Positions 3,709-22,040 of a stretch of DNA of 64,000 bases are shown piece after piece; position 1 is the stretch's first letter, and every line of letters starts with the position of its first letter. The notes under the pieces are model-generated. The model ran no database searches and was not told where the DNA came from. It was given only the letters and a program-made list of their open reading frames with translations. Origin of the DNA: Gemmatimonadales bacterium (GTDB lineage Bacteria > Gemmatimonadota > Gemmatimonadetes > Gemmatimonadales > GWC2-71-9); contig JBAUHI010000032.1 of assembly GCA_049680185.1 (NCBI GenBank), forward strand, positions 3,767-67,766, read 5' to 3'. The position numbers were made by a program, and so were the translations under genes.

Positions 3709-5544
3709 TCATTCGACCGGTTCGAACGCCCAGTTGAACACAGACACGAGGAGCAACGCCGCCCCCGCCAGGATGATCGGAAGCTTGACCCCGACCAGGA
3801 AGCCAACGAGGAAGATCAGGATCCCCCACGCCGCGAAGAACGGCCAGTAGCTCGACGGGGGCATGTGGATCCCCGCTCCCGATCCGCGGACCGGCTCGGG
3901 CAACGTGCCGCCGGCCTTCCGCTTGGCCGCCCAGAGCGGATCGCGTCCGTCGACCGTCGGGATCTGCTCGAAGTTGTGCGGCGGCGGCGGCGAGGGAATG
4001 GACCACTCGAGGGTGGCGCCGCCCCACGGATCGGCCGGGACCGGTGTCGTCGGGCGGGTGCGCCAGGTCTTGATGATGTTGATCAGGAAGACCAGGAATG
4101 AGGTGCCCAGGATGAGCGACCCGGCGGTGGCGACCGCATTCCAGAACGAGAACCCGAGTCCGGTCGGGTAAGTGTAGACCCTGCGTGGCATCCCGTTGAG
4201 TCCCAAGAAATGCATCGGGAAGAACGTCAGGTTGAACCCGATCAGCATGAGCCAGAAATGCACCTTGCCCAAGCGCTCATCCAGCATCCGGCCGAACATC
4301 TTGGGGAACCAGTAATAGGCGCCCGCCGTCAGCGCGAAGATCGACCCGCCGAAGAGCACATAGTGGAAGTGCGCCACGACGAAGTAGGTGTCGGTCTGCT
4401 GCAGGTCGGCCGGGGGCACCGCGTGCATCACGCCGGAGAGGCCGCCGATGATGAACATCGCGATGAACCCGAGCGCGAACATCATCGGCACCCGGAAGCG
4501 GAGACTGCCGCCCCAGATGGTGGCGATCCAGTTGAAGATCTTGACGCCGGTCGGGATCGCGATCAACATCGTGGTGAGCGAGAACACCGTGTCCGCGATC
4601 GGTCCCATCCCGACGGCGAACATGTGGTGGCTCCACACCCCGAACCCGAGGAACGCGATGAAGATGCCGGAGAACACCATCGCGGTGTAGCCGAAGATCG
4701 GCTTGCGCGAGAAGACCGGGAGCACTTCCGATACGATCCCGAAGGCCGGCAGGATCAGGATGTACACCTCGGGATGTCCGAAGATCCAGAACAGGTGCTG
4801 CCAGAGGACCGGATCGCCACCACCGGTCGGCACGTAGAAGCTGGTACCGAAGAATCGGTCCATCATCAGCAGGATCAGCGCGACCGTGATGACCGGGAAC
4901 GCCAGCAGCAGCAGCACCTGCGTGATGAGGCTCATCCACGTGAAGATCGGCATCCGGAGGAGCTTCATCCCGGGCGCCCGCATGTTGATGATCGTCGTGG
5001 CGAAATTGACCGCCGCCGCCAGCGAGGCGATGCCCAGCATCTGGAGGCCGAGGAGCCAGAAGTCGATGTTGATGGCCGGCGAATACTGGATGCTCGTCAG
5101 GTTGGCATATCCGAACCAGCCGGCGTTCGGCGCCGCGTGGAACAGGAAGCTCGAGTTGATGAACAGCCCGCCCAGCAGGAACACCCAGTAGCTGAAGGCG
5201 TTGAGCCGGGGGAACGCCACGTCCCGGGCACCGATCTGCAGCGGGATCATGAAATTGAAGAACATCGCCGACAACGGCATCACCGCGAGGAAGATCATCG
5301 TGGTGCCGTGCATCGTGAAGACCTGGTTGTACACCTCGGGCGACAGGAACGTGTTGTCCGGCCGCCCCAGCTGCCAGCGGAGCAGCAGCGCTTCGAGCCC
5401 ACCGATCAGGAAGAAGAGGAACGCGGTCGCACCGTAGAGGATGCCGATGCGCTTGTGATCGACGGTGGTGATCCAGCTCCACACGCCCGTCGCCTCGTGG
5501 GAGGCGCCGGCGGCGTGGTCGCGGGGAAGGGCGGCAGTGGCCAT
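3709..5544 (-). CDS. ctaD: cytochrome c oxidase subunit I
   Basis: 611 aa. Heme-copper oxidase signature WIFGHPEVYILILPAFGIVSEV, HHMFAVGM and FVVAHFHYVLFGG. Two extra C-terminal helices. Confidence 0.95.
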   Translation of the reverse strand: MATAALPRDHAAGASHEATGVWSWITTVDHKRIGILYGATAFLFFLIGGLEALLLRWQLGRPDNTFLSPEVYNQVFTMHGTTMIFLAVMPLSAMFFNFMIPLQIGARDVAFPRLNAFSYWVFLLGGLFINSSFLFHAAPNAGWFGYANLTSIQYSPAINIDFWLLGLQMLGIASLAAAVNFATTIINMRAPGMKLLRMPIFTWMSLITQVLLLLAFPVITVALILLMMDRFFGTSFYVPTGGGDPVLWQHLFWIFGHPEVYILILPAFGIVSEVLPVFSRKPIFGYTAMVFSGIFIAFLGFGVWSHHMFAVGMGPIADTVFSLTTMLIAIPTGVKIFNWIATIWGGSLRFRVPMMFALGFIAMFIIGGLSGVMHAVPPADLQQTDTYFVVAHFHYVLFGGSIFALTAGAYYWFPKMFGRMLDERLGKVHFWLMLIGFNLTFFPMHFLGLNGMPRRVYTYPTGLGFSFWNAVATAGSLILGTSFLVFLINIIKTWRTRPTTPVPADPWGGATLEWSIPSPPPPHNFEQIPTVDGRDPLWAAKRKAGGTLPEPVRGSGAGIHMPPSSYWPFFAAWGILIFLVGFLVGVKLPIILAGAALLLVSVFNWAFEPVE

Positions 5545-7660: not shown

Positions 7661-8299
7661 CTACTCGATCGGCACGTCGAACCGTACCTCGCGCTCGACC
7701 GGATACGAATAGTGCCACCACTCCATGTCGTACTGCTGGAACCCTTCCGCTTCCATCGCATGGCGGAGCAGGTCGCGGTCCGTGCGAGCCAGTCCGGTCG
7801 CGTTGGCCTCGTGGGCCTCGGGTGAGAAGGTGTCGAAGGGCGTCCCCATCTCGAGCGGACGCCCGGACTTCAAGTCGCGTAGGGTCAGGTCGATCGCCAG
7901 GCCCAAGTTATGGCGGCTCCGGCTGGCGATGTAGCCACCGGTCACCAGTTCCGGTCGGCCTACCCGCGAGGCCCACGCCACCATCTCGGCGGTGGCGCGG
8001 GCGGGCCGGTAGCTGTCGTAGATGAGGAGTCCGAGGCCCTGCCGGCGGAGCCGTGCCTCGACCCGCACCAGTGCGGCAGCGGCCTCGCGTCGAGTGAAGG
8101 CGCGATCGGCGGTGTATCCGGGAAGAGGCGCACCGGTGAAGTTGGAGTCGGTACGGTAGCGCAGGTCGACTGTGATGGTCGGATCGAGGGTGCGAACGTC
8201 GACCATCAGTGAATCGAATACGCGCTGATCGACCACAAGCGGCGTGGTGTCGGCAGGGGACTGCGGCGCGACGGCGAGGAGCAGGAGGAGAGGGAGCAT
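7661..8299 (-). CDS. D-alanyl-D-alanine dipeptidase (M15D, VanX/DdpX-like), secreted
   Basis: In-frame ATG 8299 gives signal-like MLPLLLLLAVAPQSPA. Zn-site motifs SRHNLGLAIDLTL and EWWHYSY. The longer ORF start at 8380 reads through the tandem repeat. Confidence 0.8.
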   Translation of the reverse strand: MLPLLLLLAVAPQSPADTTPLVVDQRVFDSLMVDVRTLDPTITVDLRYRTDSNFTGAPLPGYTADRAFTRREAAAALVRVEARLRRQGLGLLIYDSYRPARATAEMVAWASRVGRPELVTGGYIASRSRHNLGLAIDLTLRDLKSGRPLEMGTPFDTFSPEAHEANATGLARTDRDLLRHAMEAEGFQQYDMEWWHYSYPVEREVRFDVPIE

Positions 8300-8329
8300 G
8301 GGGGGAATATGGCTCGGATCGCCCCGGAC

Positions 8330-8496
8330 GTCATCCTGAGCAGAGCGAAAGATCGGCTGGCCTTCAGGGGTCCTCGTCATCCTGAGCAGAGCGAACGATC
8401 GGCTGGCCTTCAGGGGTCCTCGTCATCCTGAGCAGAGCGAAGGATCGGCTGGCCTTCAGGGGTCCTCGTCATCCTGAGCAGAGCGAAGGATCGGCC
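8330..8496. repeat. tandem array, 46-bp unit x 3.6
   Basis: Units at 8330, 8376, 8422 and 8468: GTCATCCTGAGCAGAGCGAANGATCGGCTGGCCTTCAGGGGTCCTC. They are identical except unit position 21 (A, C, G, G). The last unit is truncated 3 nt before the GIY-YIG stop codon. Confidence 0.95.
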
Positions 8497-8498
8497 CG

Positions 8499-8789
8499 CT
8501 ACCGAAGTTCTCCCAACTCGTCTGCACCAAGATCTCGCCACTCAGGGTTCGTGGCCTCGATGAGATCGACCTTCCGTTGACGCCGCCAACCCTTGAGCTG
8601 CCGCTCCCGCTCGACCATTGCCCGGGAAGACGGCGTCAACTCGAAATAGACCAGCCGATCGACCGAGTACCGATGAGTGAATCCCTCTCTCAGCCCCAGA
8701 CGGTGCTCTGCGACACGCTTGCGCAGGTCGGACGTCGAGCCGATGTACAACACCCGATTTCGATTGGCGAGGATGTAGACGTAGTACAC
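8499..8789 (-). CDS. GIY-YIG nuclease family protein (small stand-alone, COG2827-like)
   Basis: VYYVYILANRNRVLYIGSTSDLRKRVAEHRLG...RERQLKGWRRQRKVDLIEATNPEWRDL. I place the start at GTG 8789. The 59 upstream codons of ORF 8499..8966 are a translation of the flanking repeats (DVILSEAKDRP, HVILTPSAASGKDRP). Confidence 0.8.
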   Translation of the reverse strand: MYYVYILANRNRVLYIGSTSDLRKRVAEHRLGLREGFTHRYSVDRLVYFELTPSSRAMVERERQLKGWRRQRKVDLIEATNPEWRDLGADELGELR

Positions 8790-8805
8790 AGAGTCCTTGG
8801 TGGCG

Positions 8806-8893
8806 GGCCGATCCTTCCCGCTCGCTGCGCTCGGTGTCAGGATGACGTGCGCCGGAGCGACGGGCCGATCCTTCGCTTCGCTCAGGATGACGT
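8806..8893. repeat. two tandem right-half copies of the GTCATCCTGAG element (reverse complement orientation)
   Basis: 8806-8849 is GGCCGATCCTTC..GGTGTCAGGATGACGTG. 8862-8893 is GGGCCGATCCTTCGCTTCGCTCAGGATGACGTC. The reverse complement of the second matches the left-half unit at 8330-8496. Confidence 0.9.
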
Positions 8894-9022
8894 CGATCCT
8901 AAGGTCGGCTTCGGCATGTCGATAACCGAAATCGCGCACGGAGGCCCCGAAGATCGCCCACCGCATTGCGCCCCTCCGCTCCGGCCTGCATTATCGGGAA
9001 CCCATTTCTCCCGGATACCCCA

Positions 9023-10333
9023 ATGACCGATCGCCGCACCTTCCTCGCCGCCCTCGCCGCCCCGGCCGCCGCACGCGCCCTCAGCGTGCCCGCCGCCCAC
9101 CCCGCCGCGTCCCCGATCCTGGACGTCACCGACCCCCGGCCCCGGATGCCCGATCAGATCGGCGTCCGGGACGACGAGAAGTTCTGGAAGGAGCTGCGAC
9201 GCGAGTTCACGATCCCCAAGGACGAGGTGTTCTTCAATACCGGCACGATGGGATCGAGCCCCCGGATCGTGCAGGAGACGGTCATCGATCACATGCGCCA
9301 CGTCGACCGCGATGTGGCCCACTGGGACTACAAGGGCGACCACGAGCAGTACTTCACCGGCTACTTCAACGAACGCGGCTTTCGCGACCAACTGGGCCAG
9401 GTGCTCAACTGCAGCGGCAAGGACGTGGCCCTCTGTCAGAACGCCACGTTCGGGATGAACTTCGTCGCCAACGGGCTCGAACTCACTGCCGGTGACGAGG
9501 TGATCGTCACCGACCAGGCCCACCCCGGCGGCCGCAAAGGATTCGACCTCCGCGCCAAGCGGGAAGGGATCGTGGTGAAGGAAGTGAAGGTCCCCGACCC
9601 CGTCGCCTCACCCGACCAGCTCATCGACGGATTCACGGCCCTCACCACACCCAGGACCAAGGTCTGGGCCATCCCCCATATCTCCTCCGGCCGCGCCATC
9701 CGCTATCCGGTGGAGAAGCTCTGCGCCCTGGCCCACGACCGCGGCATCTTCTCCGCTGTGGACGGCGCCCAGGCGCTCGGCCATCTCGCCGTCGACGTGC
9801 AGGCGATGGGCTGCGACGCGTACTTCGGTTCTCCCCACAAGTGGATCCTGGCGCCCAAGGGCACCGGGTTCCTCTACGTCCGCCCCGAACGCCAGAAGGG
9901 ACTCTGGGCGACGCTCGCCTCGTTCGCATGGGATGATCAGGACGACCGGATGTTCGCCCTGATGCAATACGGCACCGGCAACCTGAGCCTGCTCAAGGGG
10001 CTCGGGAAGGCGATCGAGTTCCACCTCCAGATCGGCCCGAAGCGCGTCCAGGACCGGATCCTCGGTATGGCGGACCGGCTCCGGACCGCCCTCCAGGGTG
10101 TCCCGGGCGCCACCTTCGCCTCGCCGCTCCATCCCGACCTCACCTGCGCGTCGACGGTCTACGGGCTGAAGGGTGTCACCGGCGACGCGATCCAGGACTA
10201 CCTCTGGGACCACGGCAAGATCCGGGTCCGCAGCGAGGGCCCGGTCGGCGTTCGACACTGCTGCCACATCTACAACTCGCCGGCCGATGTGGACCGGGCG
10301 GTGGCGCTTCTGCGGTCGATGCCGCGGACGTAG
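9023..10333 (+). CDS. class V aminotransferase-fold PLP enzyme with Tat signal
   Basis: ATG 9023 gives MTDRRTFLAALAAPAAARALS, a twin-arginine motif. PLP-lysine context SPHKWILAPKGTGFLY. Confidence 0.8.
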   Translation: MTDRRTFLAALAAPAAARALSVPAAHPAASPILDVTDPRPRMPDQIGVRDDEKFWKELRREFTIPKDEVFFNTGTMGSSPRIVQETVIDHMRHVDRDVAHWDYKGDHEQYFTGYFNERGFRDQLGQVLNCSGKDVALCQNATFGMNFVANGLELTAGDEVIVTDQAHPGGRKGFDLRAKREGIVVKEVKVPDPVASPDQLIDGFTALTTPRTKVWAIPHISSGRAIRYPVEKLCALAHDRGIFSAVDGAQALGHLAVDVQAMGCDAYFGSPHKWILAPKGTGFLYVRPERQKGLWATLASFAWDDQDDRMFALMQYGTGNLSLLKGLGKAIEFHLQIGPKRVQDRILGMADRLRTALQGVPGATFASPLHPDLTCASTVYGLKGVTGDAIQDYLWDHGKIRVRSEGPVGVRHCCHIYNSPADVDRAVALLRSMPRT

Positions 10334-20051: not shown

Positions 20052-20160
20052 ATCCGCTCCTCGTCAGGTGGTCGACCATCGCTGGGGAACGTAAGGCCAC
20101 CGGGCATGCGAAGCGGCCCGCCGACGCGCCACAGCGGGCTGACCCGATCGGACCGGCATC

Positions 20161-20217
20161 TTGACAGGGCGCCATATCTTCGGTATATATTCGGTATCGT
20201 ACCGAACATGAGCCGAA
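20161..20217 (+). promoter_or_regulatory. sigma-70-type promoter with overlapping palindromic operator
   Basis: TTGACA at 20161-20166, 17-nt spacer, TATATA at 20184-20189. Perfect palindrome TTCGGTAtcgTACCGAA at 20190-20206. Extra half-sites TTCGGTA at 20179-20185 and CCGAA at 20213-20217. Confidence 0.6.
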
Positions 20218-20228
20218 GGAAGTGAGCC

Positions 20229-20387
20229 ATGCACGCCCCTGCCCCCCGCCCTTATCCACCGGCCAAGACCGACCGCAACCCGGAAACGCTGCTGCTGATC
20301 AAGGTGTGCCCGGAGTGCGCCGGGCCGGTGGTCCGGTCATCGGGATGCATCGCGTGCGTGCAGTGCGGATGGGGCAGATGCGGGTGA
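20229..20387 (+). CDS. small Cys-rich zinc-ribbon-like protein (52 aa), below ORF-track size cutoff
   Basis: My translation: MHAPAPRPYPPAKTDRNPETLLLIKVCPECAGPVVRSSGCIACVQCGWGRCG. GAAGGAAG lies 8 nt upstream of the ATG. Mostly G/C third positions. Sits directly downstream of the promoter/operator. Confidence 0.55.
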   Translation: MHAPAPRPYPPAKTDRNPETLLLIKVCPECAGPVVRSSGCIACVQCGWGRCG

Positions 20388-20455
20388 GGGGGCGCGTGAG
20401 GCGCATGCACAGCCGCGTGGGCGCGTAACGCAGCGAAGAGCGGGTTACAACGAGC

Positions 20456-21451
20456 ATGGCCACCCAACTCCCCCTCCTCGACTCCCCTGCCCCCTGGCAG
20501 GAGCTCGCGCGCCACGCGCGGGGCGCCTCCTACGTGCGGATCGAGTCGCGTCGGGTGCTGAACGGACCGGAGTCGACGGGAATGGGCTTCTGGTCCATCA
20601 ATCCATATATCGGATGCGAGTTCGGGTGCACCTACTGCTACGCGCGGGATACGCATCGATGGGCGGTGGAGCGGGCGGGTGAGGCGCATCAGCCGCATGA
20701 CGCGCTCCCACCCTGGCTCGCCTTCGAAAAGGTGATCCTGGTCAAGTCCGATGCGCCGGCGGTCTTCTCCCGCGGTCTTGTCCCGGCCCGCGTCATCGGC
20801 GACACGATCCTGATCGGCACGGCCACCGATCCGTACCAACCGGCCGAAAAGATGTTCGGGATCACCCGCGGCATCCTCGAGCGCCTCCTCGGCTATCGCG
20901 GCCTCACGCTCGGCATCATCACGAAGTCACCCTTGGTGGTGCGCGACGTCGAGCTCCTCGCCCGGCTCTCGACGCTGCACCAGCTCAAGGTGAGCATCTC
21001 CCTGGCCTCGCTCGACCGGCAGATCGTGCGACGACTGGAGGCGCGCTCCCCTGCCCCGCTCGCCCGGCTGCGGGCCTTGAAGGCGCTCACCGATGCCGGC
21101 ATCGAAGCGGGGTTGATGGTGGCACCGATCGTCCCCGGTATCACCGACGGACGGGCCGCGCTCCTGGCGCTGCTCGCGGCCGGGAAGGAAGCGGGAGCGC
21201 GCTACGCGTACGGGTCGGCGCTCCGACTCGGGCCCGCGGCGCGTGACCGTTTCCTTCCCCATCTGGCGCAGGAGTTCCCCGCGCTCAGTGATCGCTACGC
21301 GCGACGGTACGGCAGGTCCGACCGCGCCGGGAAGGACTACGAATCGGCCCTGGCCGCACGGTTCCATGCGTTGAAGGAGCAGCTTGGGTATCGTGATCTC
21401 GGCGAGTGGAAGCACCGGAGCCAGCCGGAACGAGAAGGTTCGCGCGCCTGA
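20456..21451 (+). CDS. radical SAM protein, SplB-like (COG1533 DNA repair photolyase family)
   Basis: 331 aa. CEFGCTYCYARDTH is a CxxxCxxC cluster near the N-terminus. Overall pattern matches the SplB-like family. Confidence 0.8.
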   Translation: MATQLPLLDSPAPWQELARHARGASYVRIESRRVLNGPESTGMGFWSINPYIGCEFGCTYCYARDTHRWAVERAGEAHQPHDALPPWLAFEKVILVKSDAPAVFSRGLVPARVIGDTILIGTATDPYQPAEKMFGITRGILERLLGYRGLTLGIITKSPLVVRDVELLARLSTLHQLKVSISLASLDRQIVRRLEARSPAPLARLRALKALTDAGIEAGLMVAPIVPGITDGRAALLALLAAGKEAGARYAYGSALRLGPAARDRFLPHLAQEFPALSDRYARRYGRSDRAGKDYESALAARFHALKEQLGYRDLGEWKHRSQPEREGSRA

Positions 21452-21539: not shown

Positions 21540-22040
21540 ATGAACATCACCACCCTGCTGCTCCCGGAGTTCGACCGCGAAATGGCCTCCACCCGGAAAG
21601 TCCTCGGGCGCGTCCCCGAGGCGAAGGCCGCCTGGAAGCCGCACCCCAAGTCCTTTTCCTTGGGCGACCTCGCGGTCCACGTCGCAACGCTCCCGTACTG
21701 GGGCACCGTGACCTTCCGCGACACCGAATTCGACTATACCGAAAAGGTCGCCAAGGACCTGGCTCGGAAGTTCGAGGGGACCGCGGCACTGCTCACAATG
21801 TTCGACAACAACGCGGCCTCTGCCCGAGCCGAGCTGGCCAAGATGACCGATGCCGGCTGGTCGGTCCCGTGGACCTTCAAGTACGAGGGCCAGGTCGTGT
21901 TCACCAAGTCGAAGTATGAGACCTACCGCACCGACACCCTCGACCACCTGATCCATCATCGGGCACAGTTGACGGTGTATCTGCGGCTCAACGACGTGCC
22001 GCTGCCGAACCTCTACGGACCGACGGCGGACGAGAAGTAA
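21540..22040 (+). CDS. DinB-superfamily protein
   Basis: 166 aa. Contains LGDLAVHVATLPYW and LDHLIHHRAQLTVYLR. Confidence 0.75.
   Translation: MNITTLLLPEFDREMASTRKVLGRVPEAKAAWKPHPKSFSLGDLAVHVATLPYWGTVTFRDTEFDYTEKVAKDLARKFEGTAALLTMFDNNAASARAELAKMTDAGWSVPWTFKYEGQVVFTKSKYETYRTDTLDHLIHHRAQLTVYLRLNDVPLPNLYGPTADEK

Follow-up and report, generated by a model that had tools for sequence, protein, structure and literature searches.

Direct-repeat boxes at a predicted SOS promoter of Gemmatimonadales and their relation to LexA

LexA motifs built as direct repeats are an accepted class, described for Alphaproteobacteria, Acidobacteria, Patescibacteria and Balneolaeota (PMC7739468, PMC4951493), and the LexA of Patescibacteria is among those that evolved such a motif (PMC7739468). 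In Verrucomicrobia, the core LexA regulon consists of lexA, splB (a COG1533 radical SAM gene) and imuA-imuB-dnaE2, and LexA-regulated splB orthologues have been cited for Actinobacteria and for Alpha-, Beta- and Gammaproteobacteria (PMC4951493). Here we compare with these systems a promoter at positions 20160-20231 of a 64,000-nt stretch of Gemmatimonadales DNA (contig JBAUHI010000032.1; the whole stretch is called the window below), which precedes genes for a Cys-rich zinc-ribbon protein, a SplB-like radical SAM enzyme and a DinB-family protein. Damage genes are under regulators other than LexA in Actinobacteria, Caulobacter and Deinococcus; in the DdrO-IrrE system of Deinococcus, damage-gene promoters carry the RDRM, a palindrome of ~17 bp (TTnnGn-N5-nCnnAA).

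We propose with considerable confidence that the site serves as an SOS promoter, that LexA represses it through two direct-repeat boxes, which cover the -10 region and the transcription start, and that it drives the zinc-ribbon, radical SAM and DinB-family genes. The LexA of Gemmatimonadota most likely recognises the 16-bp direct repeat TTCGG-nn-TWT-n-TTCGG. The original prediction for this promoter had instead named a 17-bp palindromic operator and an unknown regulator.

Direct repeats at the promoter and its orthologues

The promoter region reads cTTGACAgggcgccatatcTTCGGTATATATTCGGTATCGTACCGAACATGAGCCGAAGGAAGTGAGCCATG (20160-20231), and its features are collected in Table 1. Direct reading agrees with what had been described: TTGACA, 17 nt, TATATA and then the palindrome, with an extra TTCGGTA at 20179-20185 and a CCGAA at 20213-20217. 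The element is also locally AT-rich as had been said: over its 57 nt the GC content is 47%, compared with 67% for the window, and of the 63,943 segments of that length just 107 are as AT-rich. Two -10 hexamers can be read, TATATA (20184-20189) at 17 nt from TTGACA and TATATT (20186-20191) at 19 nt. The site escaped a sigma-70 promoter scan only because TATATA does not end in the T that the scan requires at position 6 of the -10 hexamer. TATATT is conserved among orthologues, usually 16-17 nt past TTGAC, and in Gemmatimonadaceae loci the ATG of the radical SAM gene lies ~6-7 nt past it, which indicates that the mRNAs predicted there are leaderless and supports TATATT as the working -10. The predicted transcription start, ~7 nt past the -10, falls near 20198, at the centre of the palindrome.

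The window has two exact copies of TTCGG-N6-TTCGG where 0.23 would be expected, a count that no more than 2 of 100 shuffles attain. The two copies stand head to head at the promoter. Box 1, which fits the consensus TTCGG-nn-TWT-n-TTCGG, lies on the -10, and box 2 spans ~+3 to +20; both thus overlap the core promoter or start site, and the placement is the same in orthologues. The notion of a sigma-70-type promoter overlapped by repressor sites is supported. The perfect 17-bp palindrome arises because the inner half-sites of the two boxes lie 7 nt apart. TTCGGTAtcgTACCGAA has a single exact match within the window, but the window holds eight perfect 7+3+7 palindromes (roughly four are expected, 64,000/4^7), so a palindrome of this kind proves little by itself. 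One-mismatch direct repeats at 4728, 11879, 19355, 34008 and 46214 were rejected as sites, being at chance frequency; they look intragenic from the surrounding sequence.

Relatives of the radical SAM protein were gathered by scanning one genome per species, which gave 80 loci (768 kb; 49-62% identity), nearly all titled Gemmatimonadales or another Gemmatimonadota taxon, with 75 usable orthologous promoters among them. These promoters share a four-part layout: cTTGAC ... TTCGG-nn-TATA-TTCGG ... CCGAA-nAAAnn-CCGAA ... ~10 nt ... start codon. Across the 80 loci, exact TTCGG-N6-TTCGG was found 119 times on both strands, against 2.8 in composition-matched simulations, while each of the other spacers from N3 to N10 gave 0-9 copies. 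The enrichment is ~40-fold and sharply specific to N6, which between 5-mers makes an 11-bp period, as in direct repeats of the alphaproteobacterial type. Both boxes are present in 30 of the 75 promoters, the promoter box over the -10 (TTCGG..TTCGG) alone in 24 and the leader box (CCGAA..CCGAA) alone in 13, so that a promoter-type box is found in 54 and a leader-type box in 43; one further promoter has both boxes far apart. The architecture is thus kept within 700 bp at 68 of the 75 loci. All seven promoters with no box in that range have an exact direct repeat further upstream, several of them before a zinc-ribbon open reading frame (ORF). From 121 sites comes the consensus TTCGG-nn-T-W-T-n-TTCGG, and 120 of these sites have both spacer T's. 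In these sites, all of which were selected for GG after TTC, the base before TTC is G in 8 and mostly C or T, and the core is accordingly not GTTC.

That the arrangement came about by chance and has no function is a reading to which we give practically no weight. Perfect 17-bp palindromes are indeed not rare in the window. Against chance stand the ~40-fold enrichment with its N6 specificity, the retention of the architecture before orthologous genes and, as set out below, its tie to SOS genes in independent metagenomes; the conservation in these comparisons already refutes it.

A different reading takes TTCGGTA-N3-TACCGAA as the operator of a symmetric dimeric repressor, with the outer TTCGGTA and CCGAA as auxiliary elements. 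It has in its favour that the palindrome is perfect and comes directly after the -10, and the earlier proposal had suggested a search for it. That search, run on the 80 related loci, returned no copy in any of them and, with up to two mismatches allowed, no match at an orthologous promoter. Neither the dyad symmetry nor the fixed spacing of the palindrome is conserved. In the 30 promoters with both boxes, the inner TTCGG-to-CCGAA distance is 7 nt in two, 8 in seven, 9 in nine, 10 in eight and 11 in four; the inverted distance ranges from 7 to 11 nt, but the direct spacing stays at N6. Single boxes stand alone in either orientation (the 24 and 13 promoters above), the four half-sites at lexA promoters all point the same way (see below), and the eight 7+3+7 palindromes of the window count against it too. 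These comparisons largely refute the symmetric model, which we regard as very unlikely, and the palindromic operator of the original prediction is accordingly not the recognition unit. Because the N6 spacing is fixed, the inner inverted spacing varies and the boxes occur singly, the unit, as judged from the orthologues, is a direct repeat with an 11-bp period and not a dyad. Likeness to the Deinococcus RDRM, which is also a 17-bp palindrome with TT...AA ends on damage-gene promoters, holds only at first sight, as the palindrome here is not conserved and the conserved unit is a direct repeat that is present at lexA.

The repeats might also act in RNA, as a 5´ leader hairpin or a translational element. 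A 7-bp hairpin could be drawn from TTCGGTAtcgTACCGAA, and many genes have CCGAA-N6-CCGAA in their predicted 5´ leader. We hold this to be extremely unlikely. The hairpin cannot form if transcription begins as predicted near 20198, because a start at the palindrome centre would leave the first half out of the transcript. The predicted fold of the leader (20196-20240) is no better than that of shuffled sequences (z +0.54), the promoter box is upstream of the start and is also found on leaderless genes, and the repeats at lexA, being direct, cannot pair.

Table 1. Positions of the promoter elements and genes in the window
Feature	Position	Strand	Remarks
-35 hexamer TTGACA	20161-20166	+	read directly; most orthologous promoters have cTTGAC at the matching position
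LexA box 1 (promoter box, predicted) TTCGGtaTATaTTCGG	20179-20194	+	exact match; overlaps spacer, -10 and discriminator
-10 region TATATATT	20184-20191	+	read directly
17-bp perfect palindrome TTCGGTAtcgTACCGAA	20190-20206		formed by the inner half-sites of boxes 1 and 2 and the 7 nt between them
LexA box 2 (leader box, predicted)	20202-20217	-	+ strand CCGAAcatgagCCGAA, - strand TTCGGctCATgTTCGG; exact core match
Shine-Dalgarno-like AGGAAG	20217-20222	+	read directly; 6 nt before ATG
52-aa Cys-rich zinc-ribbon ORF (CPECAGP..SGC..C..CGWG.CG)	20229-20387	+	first gene of the unit; also called by an independent gene caller
Radical SAM gene, PA0069/Rv2578c (COG1533 'SplB-like') group	20456-21451	+	Pfam Radical_SAM, E 1e-11
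DinB-family gene (DinB/DinB_2 four-helix bundle)	21540-22040	+	Pfam DinB, E 2.5e-5

The box in lexA promoters

LexA proteins of Gemmatimonadota were reached with an invented GC-rich LexA-like query, which returned proteins labelled Longimicrobiales and Gemmatimonadota, and a follow-up search then added several labelled Gemmatimonadales. Seven independent lexA loci were obtained (L238/239, L240 and L241 labelled Gemmatimonadales, L231 labelled Longimicrobiales, L230 labelled Gemmatimonadota, and the unlabelled L232 and L234 with the same trp synteny), all of them between trpC-trpF-trpB and trpD. Each has two tandem TTCGG-N6-TTCGG boxes in the lexA promoter, for example cTTGCGtTTCGGacaaccTTCGGgTATCCTtgcTTCGGgtcctgTTCGG in L238, cTTGCGaTTCGGtcaaccTTCGGgTATCGTtcaTTCGGttcctgTTCGG in L240 and cTTGCGtTTCGGtaagtcTTCGGttatcataTTCGGtaaatcTTCGG in L230. 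In those where the -35 (TTGCG) and the -10 are legible, the first box occupies the stretch between them and the second comes after the -10. All four half-sites run in the same direction, which again makes the direct-repeat pair, not a dyad, the unit. In the Longimicrobiales locus (L231, 2590-3000) the two boxes lie ~360 bp upstream of the annotated lexA start, beside the divergent trpC, which implies either a long GC-rich 5´ leader or a mis-called lexA start codon.

The same element is found at lexA outside the phylum. On eight contigs of 32-53% GC, which came only from the motif scan (seven as its lexA matches, the eighth, L170, by way of tblastn), lexA stands beside one box of the form TTGAC-TTCGG-N6-TTCGG-TAnnnT; in one example, acTTGACtTTCGGttttttTTCGGTATATA, it lies ~35 nt before the lexA ATG. 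Most proteins related to these LexAs carry the name of Patescibacteria, Parcubacteria, Kerfeldbacteria or Portnoybacteria, and a search of proteins with a profile built from them gave mostly Patescibacteria-named LexAs and none from Gemmatimonadota. The LexA proteins of the Gemmatimonadota loci have LexA_DNA_bind and Peptidase_S24 domains (Pfam), their best solved match is LexA (PDB 3k2z), and the columns AAG, G.SM and T.K are invariant, so that the cleavage site (Ala-Gly) and the S24 peptidase residues Ser and Lys are retained. By these features they are canonical LexA proteins. A helix S[LV]ATVHEH is common to the Gemmatimonadota LexAs and most of those from the low-GC contigs, helix 3 of the former reading SLATVHEHL.

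With the box present at the lexA promoters of Gemmatimonadales, Longimicrobiales and Patescibacteria, no protein is nearly as likely as LexA to be the binder, and the regulator need no longer be called unknown, as it first was. The site in the window has the marks of a LexA operator as far as comparison can tell, with overlap of the core promoter, apparent lexA autoregulation in the lineage, recurrence before SOS genes and LexA domains in the proteins concerned.

Among described motifs, a near match is GTTC-N7-GTTC of Alphaproteobacteria and Acidobacterium, likewise a direct repeat of 11-bp period at SOS promoters and bound by canonical LexA (PMC4951493, PMC7739468). The leader box here is often cGAAC-N7-GAAg, which overlaps that pattern. 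In contrast, the core here is TTCGG with the GG required, two spacer T's are near-invariant, and the phylum is another. The earlier observation that the half-site fits none of CTGT-N8-ACAG, GAAC-N4-GTTC and GTTC-N7-GTTC was thus right, the motif being of the direct-repeat type with a different core. With Patescibacteria the likeness extends to what appears to be the same motif, with the TTCGG-N6-TTCGG core and spacing seen at the eight low-GC lexA promoters, most of which clearly belong to that group, and to similar recognition helices; there, however, a single box lies in the promoter spacer, whereas the Gemmatimonadota boxes are ~11 bp further downstream and often paired. The Verrucomicrobia share a core gene set that includes COG1533 'splB', and two adjacent LexA sites on one promoter (PMC4951493), but their motif is the palindrome TGTTC-N4-GAACA, unlike the direct repeats, head to head or tandem, found here. 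The Gram-positive Cheo box, CGAAC-N4-GTTCG, has a half-site CGAAC that resembles CCGAA(C), and helix 3 of Bacillus subtilis LexA (STVHGHL) resembles ATVHEHL; it is inverted with a 4-nt spacer, as against a direct repeat of 11-bp period. GAAC-N4-GTTC is not conserved in the orthologous promoters, and none of the palindromic boxes CTGT-N8-ACAG, GAAC-N4-GTTC and TGTTC-N4-GAACA occurs within 20150-20230.

The direct repeats could instead be bound by a regulator other than LexA that controls lexA together with damage genes, for example an additional repressor, or an activator similar to PafBC/DriD or DdrO. In favour of this, regulators other than LexA do control damage genes in the Actinobacteria, Caulobacter and Deinococcus systems mentioned above, and no regulator gene adjoins the radical SAM operons. 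We consider this alternative unlikely. At lexA, two phyla that are very far apart both have the box in the spacer or over the -10, and one of the two, Patescibacteria, has tiny genomes; LexA autoregulation is the standard pattern. Positions over the -10 and the start suit a repressor and not an activator. The recognition helices are alike in the Gemmatimonadota LexAs and most of those from the low-GC contigs, and a direct-repeat motif has already been assigned to the LexA of Patescibacteria (PMC7739468).

In the model of LexA repression that we favour, half-sites 11 bp (about one helical turn) apart would present themselves on the same DNA face, one LexA dimer would occupy each box, and the two dimers on adjacent boxes would occlude RNA polymerase. 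Direct-repeat binding by a LexA dimer is explained by the flexible linker between its domains. DNA damage would then lead to RecA-stimulated self-cleavage of LexA, which would free the promoter and turn on the zinc-ribbon, SplB-like radical SAM and DinB-family genes. LexA as the binder, repression by occlusion and induction by DNA damage are all steps that we infer from comparison.

Several points weigh against LexA repression of this promoter as we describe it. No lexA was found in the window or the 80 radical SAM loci (tblastn, LexA profile), so that the link between the LexA of the source genome and the promoter rests on other members of the order. The lexA-proximal boxes are without the spacer T's that are nearly invariant elsewhere, and are generally less consensus-like. 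In the window itself, one spacer base of box 2 is off-consensus (a C, against T in 120 of the 121 sites), and TTGACA is 19 nt from TATATT, compared with 16-17 nt in orthologues. The stoichiometry of one dimer per direct repeat is carried over by analogy with alphaproteobacterial LexA. A tblastn search for recA found none in the window or the fetched Gemmatimonadales loci.

Other features of lexA loci were seen along the way. A related direct repeat with a TTCGC core precedes a Myxococcota lexA (TTCGCctaggtTTCGCgacgcTTCGG, upstream of position 2630 in L237), and a weaker one precedes an Acidobacteria lexA (ATTCGCcttttcTTTGCG, upstream of 3001 in L236); further phyla may share the direct-repeat mode of LexA, with one base of the core changed. 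In three Patescibacteria contigs (L189 and L173, 507 aa each, and L112, 634 aa), the lexA frame runs unbroken into a DNA methyltransferase domain, and proteins P0001, P0023, P0055, P0056, P0061, P0069 and P0090 combine Pfam PF01555 or PF02384 with LexA domains. These look like LexA-methyltransferase fusion proteins in several Patescibacteria. Perfect DnaA boxes (TTATCCACA) lie no more than ~100 bp from the lexA promoter on the Patescibacteria contigs L169, L173 and L112, which suggests that lexA is near the replication origin there.

Genes that share the box

In the related loci the box, usually in its leader form, also precedes genes for an ImuB-like protein (a Y-family polymerase with Pfam IMS/IMS_C domains whose catalytic acidic residues are replaced), dnaE2 (PHP and DNA_pol3_alpha domains), imuA (RecA-like), a second imuB type and tag (3-methyladenine glycosylase). 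A leader-type box is the sole box before the imuB-like, dnaE2 and tag genes examined, and stand-alone DinB-family genes have a box of their own in L110, L142 and L211. Together with lexA, these genes give substance to the DNA-damage regulon at which the gene content of the window had hinted, and the box-bearing set matches published SOS regulons. In one locus (L007), the immediate upstream neighbour of the imuB-like gene that carries the box encodes a CGNR zinc-finger (ABATE-like) protein (8281-9117).

When public metagenomes were scanned with TTGAC-N24-40-CCGAANAAANNCCGAA, at least 124 matches came up on at least 120 contigs. SOS-type genes adjoin 58 of the 124 matches listed: radical SAM or zinc-ribbon genes at 21, dnaE2 at 10, tag and lexA at 7 each, imuB-like genes at 6, genes for a small Cys/His-rich protein that fits no assigned family at 4, and stand-alone DinB-family genes at 3. 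The small protein (L154, L191, L209 and L228, all GC-rich metagenome contigs) reads ...CG.GT.V..L[FY]RVD...HLVF.DRHGWYC[EQ]HG..CPAV and is without a Pfam match; TTGAC...CCGAAcAAAccCCGAA stands upstream of every member. We regard this HGWYCEHG..CPAV family as a candidate new SOS-regulated gene. The same pattern gave 29 matches in viral contigs, near a roughly estimated chance level and almost all chance-like. On a phage-like contig (IMG/VR contigs L085, identical to L145, and L102), TTGAC is followed by CCGAACCGAACAAAAACCGAACGAACAAAAACCGAAC, with three CCGAAC at an 11-bp period, which may be a phage promoter that uses the direct-repeat LexA box of its host.

The genes downstream of the promoter in the window are those originally described, a 52-codon Cys-rich ORF, a SplB-like radical SAM gene and a DinB-family gene (Table 1). 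The only family-level likeness of the zinc-ribbon ORF is to the C-terminal Cys-rich tail of class II (B12-dependent) ribonucleotide reductase (PRK08665 730-759, E 4e-6), and a sequence search against solved structures gave insignificant matches only (E 0.5-0.7). The ORF is kept upstream of the radical SAM gene in most related loci, and the protein has a longer N-terminus in L057, L161 and L215. The C-terminal tail of ribonucleotide reductase shuttles reducing equivalents, and the zinc-ribbon protein may be a redox (or electron) partner of the SplB-like radical SAM enzyme. The latter matches NCBIfam rSAM_PA0069 (E 1e-62) and rSAM_Rv2578c (E 4e-57), both below their equivalog cut-offs, and has no match among solved structures by sequence search. 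The DinB-family gene follows on the same strand 88 nt past the radical SAM gene, a search for + strand terminators found none, and the two genes are probably co-transcribed.

In many loci (L001, L004, L023, L032 and L040) the spacer ahead of the radical SAM gene contains short tandem repeats rich in G, for example in units of GGCGATTG, GGCAAGGC or GGGGAAGC, often trailed by complementary C-rich runs. In the window, the spacer between the zinc-ribbon and radical SAM genes (20388-20455) has an RNA fold no better than that of shuffles (z -1.1).

Implications for LexA specificity and the SOS response

Taken by itself, the site would be an ordinary SOS promoter, useful to specialists and not surprising. 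The searchable literature yielded no description of an SOS box or SOS response for Gemmatimonadota, and nothing relevant on TTCGG or CCGAA with LexA. We suggest tentatively, and at a little short of even chances, that TTCGG-nn-TWT-n-TTCGG is an undescribed LexA motif of Gemmatimonadota, common to a single LexA lineage in the very distant phyla Patescibacteria and Gemmatimonadota and present as TTCGC variants at the lexA of Myxococcota and possibly Acidobacteria, and that its regulon includes uncharacterised SOS genes. If this is true, the direct-repeat mode of LexA binding would be old, or lexA would have spread laterally, and the uncharacterised SOS genes would be the free-standing zinc-ribbon gene before the SplB-like radical SAM gene and the small HGWYCEHG..CPAV family. 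The presence of the same direct repeat at the lexA of Patescibacteria would add a new case for the evolution of LexA specificity.

The promoter also illustrates how two direct-repeat sites can give rise to a striking perfect palindrome as a by-product, a point of consequence for motif-based genome scans; the pattern with which to search genomes would be TTCGGNNTWTNTTCGG and not TTCGGTA-N3-TACCGAA. The comparison further flags a conserved zinc-ribbon protein as a possible partner of an SOS-regulated SplB-like radical SAM enzyme. For the Gemmatimonadota, an abundant soil phylum, our analysis would assign to the DNA-damage response both a regulator, LexA, and a binding motif that can be tested.

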